DNA from: a virus
Taxonomy: Duplodnaviria; Heunggongvirae; Uroviricota; Caudoviricetes
Reading direction: 5' to 3' (one strand)
IMG/VR virus record: IMGVR_UViG_2778261165_000008
Length of the DNA: 12,705 bases
Of this stretch, positions 2,563 to 12,705 are shown piece after piece. Under the pieces are notes generated by a model, which saw nothing but the letters and a program-made list of their open reading frames with translations, ran no database searches and was not told the DNA's origin. Position 1 is the stretch's first letter, and each line of letters opens with the position of its first letter. The position numbers and the translations under genes are program-made.

Positions 2563-3306
2563 ATGACAGAGACAGAATCAGCGATTCTGGCGCACGCCCG
2601 GCGATGTGCGCCAGCGGAGTCGTGCGGCTTCGTGGTGAGAACGCCGGAGGAGGAAAGATATTTTCCCTGCGTGAATATCTCCGGTGAGCCGGAGGAGTAT
2701 TTCCGGATGTCGCCGGAGGACTGGCTGAGTGCAGAAATGCAGGGAGAGATTGTGGCGCTGGTCCACAGCCACCCCGGTGGTCTGCCCTGGCTGAGTGAGG
2801 CCGACCGGCGGCTGCAGGTACAGAGTGATTTGCCGTGGTGGCTGGTCTGCCGGGGGGCGATTCATAAATTCCGCTGTGTGCCGCATCTCACCGGGCGGCG
2901 CTTTGAGCACGGGGTAACGGACTGTTACACGCTGTTCCGGGACGCTTACCATCTGGCGGGAATTGAGATGCCGGATTTTCATCGCGGGGATGACTGGTGG
3001 CGTAACGGTCAGAATCTCTATCTGGATAATCTGGAGGCCACAGGGCTGTATCAGGTGCCGTTGTCAGCGGCGCAGCCGGGCGATGTGCTGCTGTGCTGTT
3101 TTGGTTCATCGGTGCCGAATCATGCCGCCATTTACTGTGGTGACAGCGAGCTGCTGCACCATATTCCTGAACAACTGAGCAAACGAGAGAGGTACACCGA
3201 CAAATGGCAGCGACGCACACACTCCCTCTGGCGTCACCGGGCATGGCACGCATCTGCCTTTACGGGGATTTACAACGATTTGGCCGCCGCATCGACCTTC
3301 GAGTGA
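2563..3306 (+). CDS. K: Tail assembly protein K (JAB/MPN metalloprotease-like N-terminus plus NlpC/P60-like C-terminal domain)
   Basis: 247 aa. ALVHSHPGG with downstream S..D resembles the JAMM motif. A Cys (DCYTLF) and His (NHAAIYCG) pair resembles an NlpC/P60 catalytic core. The 3' end overlaps the I start by 103 nt in a different frame. Confidence 0.82.
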   Translation: MTETESAILAHARRCAPAESCGFVVRTPEEERYFPCVNISGEPEEYFRMSPEDWLSAEMQGEIVALVHSHPGGLPWLSEADRRLQVQSDLPWWLVCRGAIHKFRCVPHLTGRRFEHGVTDCYTLFRDAYHLAGIEMPDFHRGDDWWRNGQNLYLDNLEATGLYQVPLSAAQPGDVLLCCFGSSVPNHAAIYCGDSELLHHIPEQLSKRERYTDKWQRRTHSLWRHRAWHASAFTGIYNDLAAASTFE

Positions 3307-3845
3307 AAACGGGGTCCGAAGCCATCCGGGCGCTGGCCATGCAGATCCCGGCATTTCGTCAGAAACTGAGCGACGGCTGGTACCAGGTACGCATTGCCGG
3401 GCGTGATGCAGGTGAAACCGAATTGTCTGCCCGTCTTAATGAGCCGCTGGAAAATGGTGCCGTGATCCATATCGTGCCGCGTCTGGCAGGAGCCAAAAGT
3501 GGCGGTGTGTTTCAGGCTGTGCTGGGGGCGGCTGTTATGGCGGTTGCTATATGGATGCCGGGGGTAGGAATTATGGCGAGTAATCTGCTGTTTTCTCTCG
3601 GTGCCAGTATGACGCTTGGCGGTGTTGCACAGATGCTGGCCCCTAAACCCAAAACCCCCCGCACACAGACAACGGATAACGGCAAACAGAATACCTATTT
3701 TTCTTCACTGGATAACATGGTTGCTCAGGGCAATGTTCTGCCTGTTCTGTACGGTGAAATGCGTGTGGGGTCGCGGGTGGTTTCTCAGGAGATCAGCACG
3801 GCAGACGAAGGGGACGGTGGTCAGGTTGTGGTGATTGGTCGCTGA
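3204..3845 (+). CDS. I: Tail assembly protein I (lambda gpI family)
   Basis: 213 aa starting MAATHTLPLASPGMARICLYGDLQRFGRRIDLRVKTG, which matches lambda gpI as I recall it. It has a hydrophobic Gly/Ala-rich middle and the conserved C-terminus NGKQNTYFSSLDNMVAQGNVLPVLYGEMRVGSRVVSQEIS. A GAGAGAGG purine-rich stretch lies upstream of the ATG. Confidence 0.9.
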   Translation: MAATHTLPLASPGMARICLYGDLQRFGRRIDLRVKTGSEAIRALAMQIPAFRQKLSDGWYQVRIAGRDAGETELSARLNEPLENGAVIHIVPRLAGAKSGGVFQAVLGAAVMAVAIWMPGVGIMASNLLFSLGASMTLGGVAQMLAPKPKTPRTQTTDNGKQNTYFSSLDNMVAQGNVLPVLYGEMRVGSRVVSQEISTADEGDGGQVVVIGR

Positions 3846-3863
3846 TGCAAAATGTTTTATGTG

Positions 3864-3891
3864 AAACCGCCTCCGGGCGGTTTTGTCGTTT
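3864..3891 (+). terminator. GC-rich hairpin (8-bp stem AAACCGCC / GGCGGTTT, loop TCCG) followed by a T-rich tail, between I and J
   Basis: Inverted repeat read directly from the sequence at 3864..3883, followed by TGTCGTTT. It may be an attenuator or an mRNA-stability element rather than a full terminator. Confidence 0.3.
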
Positions 3892-3905
3892 ATGGAGCAT
3901 GACGA

Positions 3906-6900
3906 ATGGGTAAAGGCAGCAGTAAGGGGCATACCCCGCGCGAAGCGAAAGATAACCTGAAATCCACGCAGCTGTTGAGTGCGATTGATGCCATCAGCGA
4001 AGGGCCGATTGAAGGTCCGGTGGACGGATTAAAAAGCGTGCTGCTGAACAGTACGCCGGTGCTGGACAGTGAGGGGAATACCAATATATCCGGTGTCACG
4101 GTGGTGTTCCGGGCAGGTGAGCAGGAGCAGACACCGCCGGAGGGATTTGAATCCTCCGGCTCCGAGACGGTGCTGGGTACGGAAGTGAAATATGACACGC
4201 CGATCACCCGGACCATCACGTCGGCAAACATCGACCGTCTGCGCTTTACCTTCGGTGTGCAGGCACTGGTGGAAACCACCTCAAAGGGGGACCGGAATCC
4301 GTCGGAAGTCCGCCTGCTGGTTCAGATACAGCGTAACGGTGGCTGGGTGACGGAAAAAGACATCACCATTAAGGGCAAAACCACCTCGCAGTATCTGGCC
4401 TCGGTGGTGGTGGATAACCTGCCGCCGCGCCCGTTTAATATCCGGATGCGCAGGATGACGCCGGACAGCACCACAGACCAGCTGCAGAACAAAACGCTCT
4501 GGTCGTCATACACCGAAATCATCGATGTGAAACAGGGCTACCCGAACACGGCACTGGTCGGCGTGCAGGTGGACTCGGAGCAGTTCGGCAGCCAGCAGGT
4601 GAGCCGTAATTATCATCTGCGCGGGCGTATTCTGCAGGTGCCGTCGAACTATAACCCGCAGACGCGGCAATACAGCGGTATCTGGGACGGAACGTTTAAG
4701 CCAGCATACAGCAACAACATGGCCTGGTGTCTGTGGGATATGCTGACCCATCCGCGCTACGGCATGGGGAAACGTCTTGGTGCGGCGGATGTGGACAAAT
4801 GGGCGCTGTATGTCATCGGCCAGCATTGCGATCAGTCGGTGCCGGACGGTTTTGGCGGCACGGAGCCGCGCATCACCTGTAATGCGTACCTGACCACACA
4901 GCGCAAGGCGTGGGATGTGCTCAGTGATTTCTGCTCTGCGATGCGCTGTATGCCGGTATGGAACGGGCAGACGCTGACGTTCGTGCAGGACCGACCGTCG
5001 GATAAGGTGTGGACCTATAACCGCAGTAATGTGGTGATGCCGGATGATGGTGCGCCGTTCCGCTACAGCTTCAGCGCCCTGAAGGACCGCCATAATGCCG
5101 TTGAGGTGAACTGGATTGACCCGAATAACGGCTGGGAGACGGCGACAGAGCTTGTTGAAGATACGCAGGCCATTCTCCGTTACGGTCGTAACGTCACGAA
5201 AATGGATGCTTTTGGCTGTACCAGCCGGGGGCAGGCACACCGCGCCGGGCTGTGGCTGATTAAAACAGAACTGCTGGAAACGCAGACTGTGGACTTCAGC
5301 GTGGGCGCAGAAGGGCTTCGCCATGTGCCGGGCGATGTCATTGAAATCTGTGATGATGACTATGCGGGTATCAGCATCGGCGGGCGCGTGCTGGCGGTAA
5401 ACAGCCAGACCCGGACGCTGACGCTCGACCGTGAAATCACGCTGCCATCCTCCGGTACCACGCTGATAAGCCTGGTTGACGGAAGTGGCAATCCGGTCAG
5501 CGTGGAGGTTCAGTCCGTCACCGACGGCGTGAAGGTGAAAGTGAGCCGTGTTCCTGACGGTGTTGCTGAATACAGCGTGTGGGGGCTGAAGCTGCCGACG
5601 CTGCGCCAGCGCCTGTTCCGCTGCGTGAGTATCCGTGAGAACGACGACGGCATGTATGCCATCACCGCCGTGCAGCATGTACCGGAAAAAGAAGCCATCG
5701 TGGATAACGGGGCGCACTTTGACGGTGACCAGAGCGGCACGGTGAATGGTGTCACGCCGCCAGCGGTGCAGCACCTGACCGCCGAAGTCACCGCAGACAG
5801 CGGGGAATATCAGGTGCTGGCGCGCTGGGACACGCCGAAGGTGGTGAAGGGTGTGAGCTTCCTGCTCCGTCTGACCGTAACAGCGGATGACGGCAGTGAG
5901 CGGCTGGTCAGCACGGCCCGGACGACGGAAACCACATACCGCTTCAGGCAGCTGGCGCTGGGGCGTTACATGCTGACGGTCCGGGCGGTAAATGCGTGGG
6001 GACAGCAGGGCGATCCGACGTCGGTATCGTTCCGGATTGCCGCCCCGGCAGCGCCGTCGCGGATTGAGCTGACGCCGGGCTATTTTCAGATAACTGCCAC
6101 GCCGCATCTTGCGGTTTATGATCCGACGGTACAGTTTGAGTTCTGGTTCTCGGAAACGCGGATTGCGGATATCAGGCAGGTTGAAACCACAGCCCGCTAT
6201 CTTGGTACGGCGCTGTACTGGATAGCCGCCAGTATCAATATTAAGCCGGGCCATGATTATTATTTTTACGTTCGCAGTGTGAACACAGTCGGCAAATCGG
6301 CATTCGTGGAGGCTGTCGGTCGGGCGAGCGATGATGCGGAAGGTTACCTGGATTTTTTCAAAGGAGAAATCGGGAAAACACATCTGGCCCAGGAGCTGTG
6401 GACGCAGATTGATAACGGTCAGCTTGCGCCTGACCTGGCTGAAATCAGGACGTCCATTACGAATGTCAGCAATGAAATCACGCAGACCGTCAATAAAAAA
6501 CTGGAAAATCAGAGCGCGGCAATCCAGCAGATACAGAAAGTTCAGGTTGATACAAATAATAACCTGAACAGCATGTGGGCCGTGAAACTGCAGCAGATGA
6601 AGGACGGACGCCTTTATATTGCGGGTATCGGAGCCGGTATTGAGAATACGCCAGCAGGTATGCAGAGTCAGGTGCTTCTGGCTGCTGATCGGATTGCGAT
6701 GATTAATCCTGCGAATGGCAACACAAAGCCGATGTTTGTTGGTCAGGGCGATCAGATATTCATGAACGACGTGTTCCTGAAACGCCTGACGGCTCCGACC
6801 ATTACCAGCGGCGGTAATCCTCCTGCATTTTCCATGACACCGGACGGAAAGCTGACCGCTAAAAATGCAGATATCAGTGGCAGTGTGAATGCGAACGCCG

Positions 6901-7385
6901 GGACGCTCAACAACGTTACGATAAATGAGAACTGTCAGATTAAAGGGAAACTGTCAGCCAACCAGATTGAAGGCGATATTGTCAAAACAGTGGGTAAGGC
7001 TTTCCCGCGGGACTCCCGGGCACCGGAGCGGTGGCCATCAGGGACCATTACCGTCAGGATTTATGACGATCAGCCGTTTGACCGGCAGATTGTTATTCCG
7101 GCGGTGGCATTCAGCGGTGCTAAACATGAGAGAGAGCATACTGATATTTACTCCTCATGCCGCCTGATAGTGAAGAAAAATGGTGCTGAAATTTATAACC
7201 GTACCGCGCTGGATAATACGCTGATTTACAGTGGTGTTATTGATATGCCAGCTGGTCACGGCCACATGACGCTGGAGTTTTCGGTGTCAGCATGGCTGGT
7301 AAATGACTGGTATCCCACAGCAAGTATCAGCGATTTGCTGGTTGTGGTGATGAAGAAAGCCACCGCAGGCATCAGTATCAGCTGA
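3906..7385 (+). CDS. J: Tip attachment / host specificity protein J (central tail fibre, lambda gpJ family)
   Basis: 1159 aa. The N-terminus [25 protein letters not shown] and long stretches further in match lambda gpJ as I recall it. The C-terminal roughly 300 aa, the receptor-binding region in lambda, look clearly more divergent from my recollection of lambda J. Confidence 0.95.
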
Positions 7386-7403
7386 ATTTTATAACCCATA
7401 TAC

Positions 7404-7428
7404 GGGCGCCAGAAATGGCGCCTTTTTT
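7404..7428 (+). terminator. Rho-independent terminator downstream of J
   Basis: Palindromic GGCGCC stem (7405..7410 and 7417..7422) with loop AGAAAT, followed by TTTTTT at 7423..7428, 19 nt after the J stop. Confidence 0.6.
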
Positions 7429-7452
7429 ATTGCAGAAAAGCGAGAGGTAATT

Positions 7453-8052
7453 ATGCGTAAAGTTTGTGCAGCCATTTTGTCCGCAGCCATCTGTCTGGCC
7501 GTATCCGGTGCGCCTGCATGGGCGTCTGAGCAGCAGGCCACACTGAGCGCAGGGTATCTTCATGCCCGTACGAACGCTCCCGGCAGCGAAAATCTGAACG
7601 GGATTAACGTGAAATACCGTTATGAGTTTACGGACACGCTGGGGCTGATTACGTCATTCAGTTATGCCAACGCTGAAGATGAGCAAAAAACGCATTACAG
7701 CGATACCCGCTGGCATGAGGATTCCGTGCGTAATCGCTGGTTCAGCGTGATGGCGGGGCCGTCTGTGCGCGTGAATGAATGGTTCAGCGCGTATGCGATG
7801 GCGGGTATGGCTTACAGCCGTGTGTCGACTTTCTCCGGGGATTATATCCGCGTAACTGACAACAAGGGGAAAACGCACGATGTGCTGACCGGAAGTGATG
7901 ACGGTCGCCACAGCAACACGTCTCTGGCGTGGGGAGCTGGCGTGCAGTTTAACCCGACCGAATCCGTGGCCGTTGACGTCGCTTATGAAGGCTCCGGCAG
8001 CGGTGACTGGCGTACCAACAGTTTCATCGTTGGTGTCGGTTATAAATTCTGA
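7453..8052 (+). CDS. lom: Lom/Ail/PagC/OmpX-family outer membrane beta-barrel protein (lambda Lom-like moron)
   Basis: 199 aa with an N-terminal signal peptide (MRKVCAAILSAAICLAVSGAPAWA then SEQ). The body has alternating aromatic/hydrophobic beta-strand patterns and ends in a C-terminal Phe (GVGYKF), typical of outer-membrane barrels. It sits between J and stf as in lambda. A GAGAGG Shine-Dalgarno lies 5 nt upstream. Confidence 0.9.
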   Translation: MRKVCAAILSAAICLAVSGAPAWASEQQATLSAGYLHARTNAPGSENLNGINVKYRYEFTDTLGLITSFSYANAEDEQKTHYSDTRWHEDSVRNRWFSVMAGPSVRVNEWFSAYAMAGMAYSRVSTFSGDYIRVTDNKGKTHDVLTGSDDGRHSNTSLAWGAGVQFNPTESVAVDVAYEGSGSGDWRTNSFIVGVGYKF

Positions 8053-8078
8053 TTAGCCAGGTAACACAGTGTTATGAC

Positions 8079-8106
8079 AGCCCGCCGGTTCAGGCGGGCT
8101 TTTTTG
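8079..8106 (+). terminator. Rho-independent terminator downstream of lom
   Basis: Stem AGCCCGCC (8079..8086) pairing with GGCGGGCT (8093..8100), loop GGTTCA, followed by TTTTT at 8101..8105. Confidence 0.65.
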
Positions 8107-8116
8107 TGGGGGGAAT

Positions 8117-11100
8117 ATGGCAGTACGGATTTCAGGTGTACTGAAAGATGGCGCAGGTAAGCCGATACAAAACTGCACCATTCAGCTAAAGGCCAGGCGC
8201 AACAGCACCACGGTGGTGGTGAACACAGTGGCCTCAGAAAACCCGGATGAAGCCGGGCGTTACACAATGGACGTCGAGTATGGTCAGTACAGCGTCAGTC
8301 TGTTGGTGGAGGGATTCCCGCCGTCACACGCCGGGATTATCACCGTATATGAGGACTCAAAGCCGGGCACACTGAATGATTTCCTCGGTGCAATGACGGA
8401 GGATGATGTCCGGCCAGAGGCACTGCGCCGTTTTGAACTGATGGTGGAAGAGGTGGCGCGTAACGCGTCCGCAGTGGCACAGAACACGGCAGCCGCGAAG
8501 AAGTCAGCCAGTGATGCCAGCACATCTGCCCGTGAGGCGGCAACCCATGCGACTGATGCTGCAGGCTCAGCACGCGCAGCCAGCACGTCAGCCGGACAGG
8601 CCGCGTCGTCGGCTCAGTCAGCGTCTTCCAGCGCAGGAACGGCATCAGCAAAGGCCACTGAAGCATCAAAAAGTGCTGCCGCTGCAGAGTCCTCAAAAAG
8701 CGCGGCGGCCACCAGTGCCGCTGCGGCAAAAACGTCAGAAACGAATGCGGCAGCGTCACAACAATCAGCAGCCACTTCAGCATCCACCGCGACCACGAAA
8801 GCGTCAGAAGCTGCCACCTCAGCCCGGGATGCGTCGGCTTCAAAAGAGGCGGCAAAATCATCAGAAACGAGCGCAGCCTCGAGCGCCAGCAGCGCAGCTT
8901 CCTCGGCAACGGCGACAGCAAATTCTGCGAAGGCGGCAAAAACGTCCGAGACGAACGCCAAGGCTTCTGAAACGGCAGCGGGACAGAGTGCCTCAGCTGC
9001 GGCAGGCTCAAAAACAGCGGCTGCGTCGTCTGCCAGTGCCGCGTCAACAAGTGCCGGGCAGGCCTCAGCCAGTGCCACCGCCGCCGGAAAATCGGCAGAA
9101 AGTGCTGCATCGTCCGCTTCAACAGCCACAACGAAGGCTGGCGAAGCCGCTGTACAGGCCAGCGCAGCAGCGAGGTCTGCTTCCGCAGCGAAGACATCCG
9201 AAACGAATGCGAAAGCGTCGGAAACCCGTGCAGAATCCTCAAAAACGGCAGCCGCATCGTCCGCCAGTTCGGCAGCGTCATCGGCATCATCTGCGTCTGC
9301 TTCAAAAGATGAGGCGACCAGACAGGCGTCAGCAGCGAAGGGCAGCGCCACGACGGCATCCACGAAAGCAACAGAGGCGGCAGGCAGTGCGACGGCAGCA
9401 TCTCAGAGCAAAACTGCTGCTGAATCCGCTGCGACCCGTGCGGAAGCTGCTGCTGATCGTGCTGAAGAGATTGCCGGTGCAGTTGCGATGGAAGACGCAA
9501 GCCTTACAACTAAAGGTGTTGTGAAACTTAGCAGTGCTGTTGATAGCACCAGTGAATCGCTGGCCGCAACGCCAAAAGCAGTTAAAGCAGCCAATGACAA
9601 TGCGAATAGCAGGGTGCCATCTAACCGAAAAGTTAACGGAAAAGCACTGACTGCGGATATAACATTAACGCCGAAAGATATTGGTACTTTAAATTCAGTA
9701 ACGATGTCTTTCTCTGGCGGGGCTGGGTGGTTCAAACTGGCTACGGTTACCATGCCACAAGCGAGTTCCATCGTTTACATCGCATTGATTGGTGGCGCTG
9801 GTTACAACGTCGGTTCCCCACATCAGGCAGGCATTTCAGAACTGGTTCTACGAGCAGGCAATGGAAACCCCAAAGGAATTACCGGGGCTTTGTGGAAGCG
9901 TACAGCCGTCGGATTAACGAATTTCGCCTGGATCAACACATCCGGCGATACATATGATATTTACGTTGAGATTGGCAATTATGCGACTCGTGTAAATATC
10001 CATTGGGATTGTACTGCAAATGCGACAGTTTCTATTTATACATCGCCAACATATTCAGCGAGTAAGCCTTCCAGCGTTACCGATGGTGTTGTTTATACGA
10101 TGTATAGCACACATCAGAAACCGACGCCGTTAGATATTGGAGCACTGCCAACAACCGGAGGAACAGTTTCAGGTCCGTTGTCTGTTACAGGTGGATTAAC
10201 TGGTTCATTGAATGGTAATGCAAGTACAGCCACGAAATTGCAGACGGCAAGATCTATCGGTGGAGTTGTTTTCGACGGTTCTGCAAATATTAACCTTCCA
10301 GGTGTAAACACTACGGGTAATCAGAACACCACTGGTAATGCTGCAACTGCTACAAAACTTCAGACTGCAAGAAAAATATCCGGTGTTCCATTTGATGGTT
10401 CTACTGATATCACTTTAACCGCCGCGCATGTGGCTGCTTTTGCCAGAAGAGCAACGGATGCGTATGCCGATGCGGATGGGGGCGTTCCATGGAATGCCGA
10501 ATCAGGCGCTTACAATGTCACCCGCTCTGGCGACAGCTATATTCTGGTTAACTTCTATACCGGAGTCGGAAGTTGCCGGACCTTGCAGATGAAGGCGCAT
10601 TACAGAAATGGTGGTCTGTTCTACCGTTCTTCAAGAGACGGTTATGGTTTTGAAAGTGGTTGGGCGCAGCTTTACACCTCGGCTCATCCTCCTGCAGAGT
10701 TTTATCCAGTCGGTGCACCAATCCCGTGGCCATCAGATACCGTTCCGTCTGGTTATGCCCTGATGCAGGGGCAGACTTTTGACAAATCTGCCTACCCAAA
10801 ACTTGCAGCCGCTTATCCGTCAGGCGTGATCCCTGATATGCGTGGCTGGACGATTAAGGGCAAACCTGCCAGTGGTCGAGCCGTATTATCTCAGGAACAG
10901 GACGGCATTAAATCGCACACCCACAGCGCCAGCGCATCCAGTACGGATTTGGGGACGAAAAACACATCGTCGTTTGATTACGGCACTAAATCCACGAATA
11001 ACACCGGGGCGCATACCCATAGTGTTAGCGGTACGGCTGCTTCAGCCGGTGCACATACCCATTCGATGACATTTGTTTCAGGTGGTTCCAGTGGTGCTCC

Positions 11101-11344
11101 GGGAAGTGGAGCATCTGATTATTCTAAATACAGTGTTAACACTTCTTCTGCAGGCGCTCATACGCACTCTGTATCGGGTACTGCTGCAAGCGCAGGTGCA
11201 CACGCACATACTGTGGGTATTGGTGCTCATACGCACTCGGTTGCGATTGGCTCACATGGACACACCATCACCGTTAACGCTGCTGGTAACGCGGAAAACA
11301 CCGTCAAAAACATCGCATTTAACTATATTGTGAGGCTTGCATAA
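8117..11344 (+). CDS. stf: Side tail fibre protein (lambda Stf family), mosaic
   Basis: 1075 aa. The N-terminus [38 protein letters not shown] and the C-terminus from GAPIPWPSD to [11 protein letters not shown] match lambda Stf as I recall it. Between them are an Ala/Ser/Thr-rich repeat block, a divergent AT-richer domain and His-rich HxH repeats. The stop overlaps the tfa start (TAATG). Confidence 0.93.
8465..9480 (+). repeat. Ala/Ser/Thr-rich low-complexity coding repeats inside stf, with recurring [13 protein letters not shown]-type units
   Basis: Three similar DNA units lie near 8717..8760, 8933..8975 and 9187..9228. The biased composition produces long stop-free alternate frames on both strands (ORF-track entries 8340..9500, 8511..9524 and 8614..9363). 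Confidence 0.8.
10205..10415 (+). repeat. Two copies of a phage tail-fibre repeat motif (G-N-A[20 protein letters not shown]) inside stf
   Basis: [28 protein letters not shown] and [28 protein letters not shown] are encoded about 120 nt apart, with synonymous divergence at the DNA level. Confidence 0.75.
10911..11270 (+). repeat. His-rich HxH repeat region in the Stf C-terminal domain
   Basis: Repeated [24 protein letters not shown] and SHGHT motifs, including duplicated [17 protein letters not shown] units. Similar HxH motifs are known from distal tail fibre tips, for example in T4 gp37. Confidence 0.7.
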
Positions 11345-11919
11345 TGGTATTCAGAATGAGTGAACAACCACGGACCATAACAATTTATAATCTGCTGGCC
11401 GGAACTAATGAATTTATTGGTGAAGGTGATGCATATATTCCGCCTCATACAGGTCTGCCAGCAAACAGTACCGATATTGCACCGCCAGATATTCCGGCAG
11501 GCTTCGTGGCTGTTTTCAACAGTGATGAGGCATCGTGGCATCTCGTTGAAGATCATCGGGGTAAAACGGTTTATGACGTGGCTTCCGGCGACGCGTTATT
11601 TATTTCTGAACTCGGTCCGTTACCGGAAAATGTTACCTGGTTATCGCCGGAAGGGGAGTTTCAGAAGTGGAACGGCACAGCCTGGGTGAAGGATACGGAA
11701 GCAGAAAAACTGTTCCGGATCCGGGAGGCGGAAGAAACAAAAAACAACCTGATGCAGGTAGCCAGTGAGCATATTGCGCCGCTTCAGGATGCTGCAGATC
11801 TGGAAATTGCAACGGAGGAAGAAATCTCGTTGCTGGAAGCATGGAAAAAGTATCGGGTATTGCTGAACCGTGTTGATACGTCAACTTCACAGGATATTGA
11901 ATGGCCAGCACTGCCGTAG
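11344..11919 (+). CDS. tfa: Tail fibre assembly protein (Tfa family, TfaR/TfaQ-like)
   Basis: 191 aa, with [50 protein letters not shown] near the N-terminus. It closely resembles the E. coli K-12 Rac/Qin Tfa proteins as I recall them and is translationally coupled to stf. Confidence 0.9.
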
Positions 11920-12016
11920 GGTAAAACATATAAATTCTATAATTAGATGTATCTTTCCATTTACGGCAAGGAAGGGGGCTTGGAAGACGTAAAGCATCTC
12001 ACACCGAGATTATTTT

Positions 12017-12520
12017 TTATATGTCAGGTGTCTGAAGTTTTGCTTTGGCTCTTAAAATGGTTTGCCGCGAGGTTTTGAATTCCCGGGCAATGGCACTTAT
12101 ACTTACACCTGACTTAATTCGTTCGAATACCACCTGTTTCTGTTCTTCATTTAACACAGGTGGTCGACCAAAACGTTTCCCTGCGCCGCGGGCTCTTACT
12201 ATCCCGGAATGAGTGCGTTCAAGTAAAAGGTCTCGTTCAAATTCAGCGACTGCTGAAATTACTTGCATCATCATTTTTCCTGTTGGACTGGTCAGGTCAA
12301 TGCCCCCCAATGCTAAGCAATGCACTCTGATACCTGTTTCGGTCAGTTGTTCCACTGTTTTCCTGATATCCATTGCATTACAACCAAGGCGATCCAGTTT
12401 TGTCACAATCAATTGATCACCACATTTCAGGCGAGCAAGCAACCGGTTAAAACCAGGACGCTCACTGGTTGCTGCTGAGCCCTGAGAGATCCCCTCATAA
12501 TTTCCCCAAAGCGTAACCAT
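12017..12520 (-). pseudogene. pin: Site-specific DNA invertase (serine recombinase, Pin/Hin/Gin family), N-terminally truncated and lacking the catalytic Ser segment
   Basis: The 167-aa minus-strand ORF contains [36 protein letters not shown] and a C-terminal helix-turn-helix, all serine recombinase hallmarks. About 25 to 35 N-terminal residues, including the G-Y-x-R-V-S-T catalytic motif, are absent, and the first residues (MVTLWGNY) do not fit the family. The in-frame sequence upstream carries a stop. Confidence 0.8.
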
Positions 12521-12705
12521 GTGTGAATAAATTTTGAGCTAGTAGGGTTGCAGCCACGAGTAAGTCTTCCCTTGTTATTGTGTAGCCAGAATGCCGCAAA
12601 ACTTCCATGCCTAAGCGAACTGTTGAGAGTACGTTTCGATTTCTGACTGTGTTAGCCTGGAAGTGCTTGTCCCAACCTTGTTTCTGAGCATGAACGCCCG
12701 CAAGC
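12490..12705 (-). other. Unassigned stop-free frame running in from the window's 3' edge on the minus strand (C-terminal fragment of an unknown protein, or non-coding junction DNA)
   Basis: A minus-strand frame is open for about 70 codons (…[37 protein letters not shown], then stop) and ends about 30 nt inside the truncated pin ORF in a different frame. I could not assign a family. Confidence 0.2.

Follow-up and report, generated by a model that had tools for sequence, protein, structure and literature searches.

IS10 within the pinR Gene of a Rac-Type Lambdoid Prophage

Introduction

At the right end of a 12,705-nucleotide stretch of phage DNA (the window, by which we mean the whole stretch that was analyzed), the 3′ part of a gene for a Pin-type recombinase faces the tail-fibre assembly gene tfa across a short spacer. 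Invertases of the Pin/Gin/Cin type are associated with the flipping of tail-fibre cassettes, and the original prediction took this locus to be the remnant of a host-range switch, deleted or broken by recombination. The locus raises two questions: what broke the recombinase gene, and whether an invertible cassette is truly missing from its side.

Gene order in the window

The window covers the right arm, with the late genes, of a Rac-type lambdoid prophage. Its genes are arranged in the order tape measure, M, L, K, I, J, lom, stf and tfa, with pinR pointing toward tfa from the other side. The features are as follows.

35–1528: tape-measure protein, C-terminal part (Pfam)
1521–1859: M (Pfam)
1859–2557: L (Pfam)
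2563–3306: K, with JAB and NlpC/P60 domains (Pfam)
3204–3845: I (Pfam)
3906–7385: J (Pfam)
7453–8052: Lom (Pfam)
8117–11344, plus strand: stf, side tail-fibre gene, 1075 amino acids (Pfam phage_tail_N, Collar and Phage_fiber)
11344–11919, plus strand: tfa, tail-fibre assembly gene, 191 amino acids (Pfam Caudo_TAP, E = 2.2e-42)
11920–12016: spacer of 97 nucleotides between the convergent tfa and pin stop codons
12017–12481, minus strand: 3′ fragment of pinR, codons 43–196 plus stop
12473–12481: IS10 target, 9 base pairs, TGCTGAGCC
12482–12705, minus strand: IS10, first 224 nucleotides from the “inside” end (CTGAGAGATCCCC...), running off the window
12495–12704, minus strand: IS10 transposase, last 69 codons plus stop (from translation)
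12017–12520, minus strand: hybrid open reading frame (ORF) of 167 amino acids, 13 codons of the IS10 end followed by PinR 43–196

The stf product is named “phage tail protein” by PGAP in an identical genome, and the tfa product is WP_001351719.1, annotated as tfaR. The right-arm order of Rac-type prophages, J-lom-stf-tfa-pinR-ydfK/ynaE-ynaM followed by uspF-ompN, was found here, with the genes beyond the window taken from relatives. In those relatives, ttcA, uspF and ompN mark the site occupied by the Rac-type prophage.

At the opposite end, positions 1–126 are the end of an IS3-family element of which 100%-identical copies occur on thousands of E. coli plasmids. The element cuts into the tape-measure gene, and most genomes match the window only from position 127 onward. 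Because both ends of the window sit in IS elements, the window probably represents a draft contig that broke at repeats. An Rfam scan of the window returned a single match, a full-length IS009 (RF02111) at 11687–11885 on the plus strand with 220.9 bits. This match lies wholly within the 3′ coding end of tfa, just upstream of the 11920–12705 interval, and is unrelated to the junction described below.

A recombinase fragment without the catalytic serine

The minus strand of 12017–12481 encodes 154 amino acids that align to G43–I196 of the intact, 196-residue PinR. The Pfam Resolvase match of this fragment is limited to profile positions 43–144 of 145, and its HTH_7 domain is complete (E = 2.4e-11, profile positions 1–44 of 45). 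For comparison, an intact allele (L002) covers Resolvase positions 1–144 and includes Ser11, a residue that lines up with the serine of Gin for which PDB 3uj3 carries alanine. The N-terminal 42 residues of PinR, among them the active-site segment YCRISTLDQ with Ser11, are absent from the window. This bears out the earlier description of a truncated invertase without its catalytic-serine segment.

Intact pinR alleles match the fragment at 100% nucleotide identity as far as position 12481. The intact allele, of which the window holds a part, encodes a protein 99% identical to K-12 PinR over its full length. The portion of the recombinase encoded in the window cannot be catalytically active, and the pinR::IS10 allele is a recombinase knock-out. 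Its appearance as an N-terminal deletion arises because the window ends 224 nucleotides into the IS.

The break coincides with an IS10 terminus

The abrupt junction that had been placed near 12490 is real, and its position is corrected to exactly 12481|12482. We mapped it by megablast, with positions 11300–12705 as the query and 5,426 complete E. coli genomes as the database. Numerous genomes that carry an intact, annotated pinR align at 100% identity as far as query position 1182 (window position 12481) and diverge thereafter. The “different stop-free frame” that had been described past the break is indeed present, and is the 3′ end of the IS10 transposase gene (12495–12704).

All 224 nucleotides from 12482 to 12705 match IS10-right of Tn10, as carried by plasmid R100, with 100% identity. 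There the element adjoins tetR/tet(B)/tetC, and the window carries the tet-facing end. The same IS10 portion is matched in 1175 plasmid records, with coverage of at least 80% in 1161. The transposase coding sequence, WP_001339197.1, is annotated by PGAP as “IS4-like element ISVsa5 family transposase” both in R100 and in the E. coli genome Z1323CEC0004 (L001), in which the full IS10 copies measure 1329 base pairs and each hold a coding sequence of 402 amino acids.

The preferred target of IS10 is 5′-NGCTNAGCN-3′, with 9 base pairs duplicated upon insertion (PMC4574204). The nine nucleotides that abut the element in the window (12473–12481) read T-GCT-G-AGC-C, which fits this consensus, and they specify Gly43-Ser44-Ala45 of PinR on the minus strand. 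With the same end sequence, transposase accession, length of 1329 base pairs and 9-base-pair duplication, the event shows no difference in kind from known IS10/Tn10 transposition. We propose that IS10 (IS4 family, 1329 base pairs, the IS of Tn10) inserted into this consensus hotspot at codons 43–45 of pinR. Such an insertion would part the first 42–45 codons, including YCRISTLDQ and the Ser11 nucleophile, from the remainder of PinR. It would also be of recent date, given that neither half of the gene yet differs from intact alleles.

The far side of the insertion in related genomes

Since the window stops inside IS10, the sequence beyond 12705 is extrapolated from the closest relatives. Among the 5,426 complete E. 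coli genomes, those of the chicken isolates Z1323CEC0004 and Z1323CEC0002 alone have the exact pin|IS10 junction. In Z1323CEC0004, the pin 3′ part is followed by IS10 (1329 base pairs), TGCTGAGCC, a further IS10 (1329 base pairs) and TGCTGAGCC with the pin 5′ part, beyond which lie ydfK, ynaM, uspF and ompN. The 5′ part comprises 45 codons, is annotated as a partial recombinase and is located 2.7 kb from the 3′ part. The nine-nucleotide target occurs in three copies in both junction-carrying genomes, flanking the IS pair and separating its members. When both IS copies and two of the 9-base-pair repeats are removed in silico, the result is exactly the intact, 591-nucleotide pinR of strain L73.

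That these two genomes retain the pin 5′ fragment and the 9-base-pair repeats argues that the N-terminus was displaced by transposition and not deleted. The duplication and the surviving 5′ part are demonstrated in these two related complete genomes only, and we infer that the far side in the source genome of the window is the same. The two IS10 copies of Z1323CEC0004 (L001, 7183–9849) are in direct orientation and differ at 15 nucleotides. Because the copies are non-identical and parted by one target repeat, the arrangement implies two successive, independent insertions into the same hotspot, as opposed to a tandem duplication. The two assemblies are probably clonal, and they are the only ones from which the tandem IS10 pair is known.

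Positions 2635–12705 of the window are 100% identical to Z1323CEC0004, and the counterpart of 134–2634 is missing from both junction-carrying genomes. We considered whether the window might be DNA of Z1323CEC0004 itself and rejected this on account of the absence of 134–2634 from that genome. At the corresponding place (L007, 4860–7340), Z1323CEC0004 has lost the 3′ end of the tape-measure gene, M, L and the 5′ end of K, and carries two IS3-family elements instead; this loss is IS-associated erosion of the same prophage. A different lambdoid prophage, with the effector genes espK and espO, resides near potB in Z1323CEC0004.

The layout without a cassette is the native one

The tfa and pin stop codons are separated by 97 nucleotides (11920–12016), the window has a single stf and a single tfa, and no inverted stf/tfa copy or meaningful inverted repeat was found in 8000–12481. 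The original observation that no cassette lies between tfa and pin is true. Its reading as a lesion does not hold, since the intact Rac prophage of K-12 has the same layout: lomR, stfR and tfaR converge on pinR, followed by ynaE, ynaM, att, uspF and ompN. The K-12 gene (b1374) resembles the window copy in its protein (99% identical), in gene order, in the 97-nucleotide spacer, which is identical, and in having no adjacent invertible segment. It differs in being intact, whereas the window copy is interrupted by IS10, and K-12 Rac also has IS5 in lomR. The pinQ gene of the Qin prophage is a 99%-identical paralogue of K-12 pinR.

The same arrangement extends to strain L73, where an intact pinR occupies the convergent position after tfa, and to free phages. 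PinR proteins 99.5% identical to the intact allele are encoded by deposited lambdoid phages, including 2H10, Tritos and mEp460_ev081. In phage 2H10, J, lom, stf and tfa converge on pinR, which is followed by a small ORF, dinI and int. Phage Tritos has a different tail-fibre module, yet its pinR again occupies the convergent position and is placed after what is left of the tfa 3′ end. The spacer has one base changed in each of these two phages. The Tritos remnant (L006, 6592–6850) is fused to the same spacer and pinR, which places a mosaic joint inside tfa. The cassette-free layout is the native state and is standard for lambdoid phages that carry PinR or PinQ. The absence of an adjacent invertible cassette is unconnected with the IS10 insertion.

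We also searched for crossover sites with two half-site matrices built from the true e14 P-segment sites of K-12. The e14 sites were located as CTCTCGAAAACC-TT-GGTTTGGGAGAA and TTCTCCCAAACC-AA-CGTTTATGAAAA, with 1797 nucleotides between the repeat arms, and they score 28.6–31.7. The best match in the window reaches 13.9. The null, taken as the maximum of each of 100 shuffles of the window, has a mean of 10.6 ± 1.8 and a top value of 14.7. Thus, no gix/pix-type site in the window exceeds the shuffle null, and the interval 11920–12016 is absent from the top matrix matches, in line with the original remark that no convincing gix/hix-type crossover site was found there. No crossover-type site was detected at the intact pinR loci either (L002 and L004; the scan included K-12 Rac), where no score is above 9.5. 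Searches for bounding inverted repeats, in 8000–12481 and around intact pinR (L002 and L005), yielded short pairs with 72–93% complementarity, which is at chance level.

A palindrome, GAGACCCAAAATCGATTTTGTGAAAA, is present about 130 nucleotides upstream of intact pinR (L002, 5440–5465), outside the window, and matches e14 pixR at 16 of 26 bases. As a crossover site it was rejected, at a score of 6.6 that falls short of the shuffle null. It may represent an operator or the relic of a site. In the spacer between tfa and pin, no terminator-like site was found, and promoter-like matches are at chance level.

PinR and the proven invertases

Gin, Cin, Pin and Hin are expected to share roughly 60% identity or more. 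PinR is only 39% identical to PinE and hence probably stands apart from the Gin/Cin/Pin group of cassette flippers, and the premise that this gene should behave as a flipper of that type would then fail. The best PDB matches of PinR are Gin chains (2.5e-29), modestly better than gamma-delta resolvase (2.5e-22).

There are points of likeness. PinE of e14, Gin of the Mu G system and Cin of the P1 C system are, like the pinR product, small serine recombinases (Resolvase plus HTH_7) encoded near genes of the stf/tfa type. However, in e14 a 1797-base-pair segment between inverted 26-base-pair sites carries tfaP/tfaE and stfP/stfE in opposed orientation, elements that the pinR locus is without. Moreover, pinE of e14 points away from the P segment, whereas pinR is convergent with tfa.

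PinQ and PinR share 99% identity with one another and 38% with PinE, and neither had previously been characterised (Kirigo et al., Nucleic Acids Res 2025, PMC12529663); PinR is named in a preceding bioRxiv version of that work. Production of PinQ inverts the 1797-base-pair P segment of e14 in trans, and PinQ/PinR are reported to be able to do so (PMC12529663). The inversion gives rise to a chimeric StfE2, which blocks adsorption of phage T2 (PMC12529663). BLAST with the whole Rac, Qin and e14 sequences revealed inversions in e14 only (PMC12529663). Since deletion of pinE alone locks the P segment in one orientation (PMC12529663), how much PinQ/PinR contribute at native levels is less certain than that paper's title implies. 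Z1323CEC0004, the complete genome closest to the window, lacks e14 at its canonical site (L010, 1–1400). There, icd is intact and abuts iraM, and the reported trans target is accordingly absent at icd.

Alternative explanations for the break

We observe directly which IS is present, where exactly the junction lies, what the target sequence is, which domains are encoded and that the layout is conserved, and we consider it very probable that IS10 split the pinR gene of a Rac-type prophage whose missing cassette is simply the normal layout. The original description of a broken remnant was right that the gene is broken. The cause it gave, deletion or recombination, is contradicted by the IS10 end, the consensus target and the 9-base-pair duplication. 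In its full form, that account would have deletion or illegitimate recombination remove both the N-terminus of the invertase and an inverted stf′/tfa′ cassette from a host-range switch acting in cis. Both are truly missing within the window, and tail-fibre genes beside a serine recombinase do resemble the Mu G, P1 C and e14 P systems. We nevertheless regard such decay as extremely unlikely. An IS10 end sits at a consensus target, and relatives have kept both the duplication and the 5′ fragment. Intact pinR has the same neighbours and spacer in K-12 Rac, the layout recurs in phage genomes, and simple deletion of an e14-like cassette cannot yield a pin gene that is convergent with tfa. The 39% identity of PinR to PinE and the reported finding that E. 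coli genomes show no inversions in Rac or Qin (PMC12529663) weigh in the same direction.

Two further accounts were considered. IS10 could have inserted in this way, and a later IS10-mediated adjacent deletion, or an inversion or recombination between IS10 copies, could have left the source genome with no pin 5′ fragment beyond the IS. The lineage is rich in IS elements, with at least 40 matching places per genome, and the IS3-family-associated loss of 134–2634 at the other end of the window has occurred in a related genome. We judge this course of events unlikely, as both junction-carrying complete genomes retain the 5′ fragment and the 9-base-pair repeats. Alternatively, the junction might be an assembly chimera, produced by misjoining of repeats in a draft assembly, given that both window ends lie within multicopy IS elements, where assemblers fail. 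This has almost no credibility against the recurrence of the same junction in two complete genomes, the precise IS terminus, the consensus target, the 9-base-pair duplication and a hybrid ORF that is found on 15 contigs from several sources.

The hybrid reading frame and the significance of the locus

The ORF that spans the junction is called “recombinase family protein” WP_089521847.1 by PGAP and is best described as an annotation product that specifies a putative protein. The exact hybrid protein is encoded on the 15 public contigs mentioned above and a one-residue variant on 5. In addition, “partial” PinR proteins that start at residue 44 or 45 are present on 36 and 7 contigs, respectively, in keeping with draft contigs that terminate at an IS in this same place. 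Because hybrid and partial proteins occur on so many contigs, this hotspot is one that has been sequenced many times in public assemblies.

The hybrid ORF follows the IS10 transposase gene directly and is read in the same direction. It might be expressed by read-through as a catalytically dead, dimerising and DNA-binding product that interferes with other Pin recombinases, with the recurrent hit being selected, although we think this highly improbable. If it were so, the protein could lock a target in trans, for instance a P segment of the e14 type, and the recurrent IS10 hit would represent a selected modulator in place of a neutral knock-out.

The peculiarity of the locus is real, and it is fully accounted for by IS10 in pinR together with the normal orphan layout. 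It is already annotated publicly, as a partial recombinase beside IS4-like transposases. The locus adds to the cases in which IS elements erode an accessory gene of a prophage, and as such is of little weight. It does caution against reading orphan PinR/PinQ genes as broken cis switches, because the layout is conserved in phages and action in trans on e14 has been reported. Codons 43–45 of pinR form a perfect IS10 hotspot, which provides natural pinR-null strains for testing the proposed anti-phage role of PinQ/PinR.
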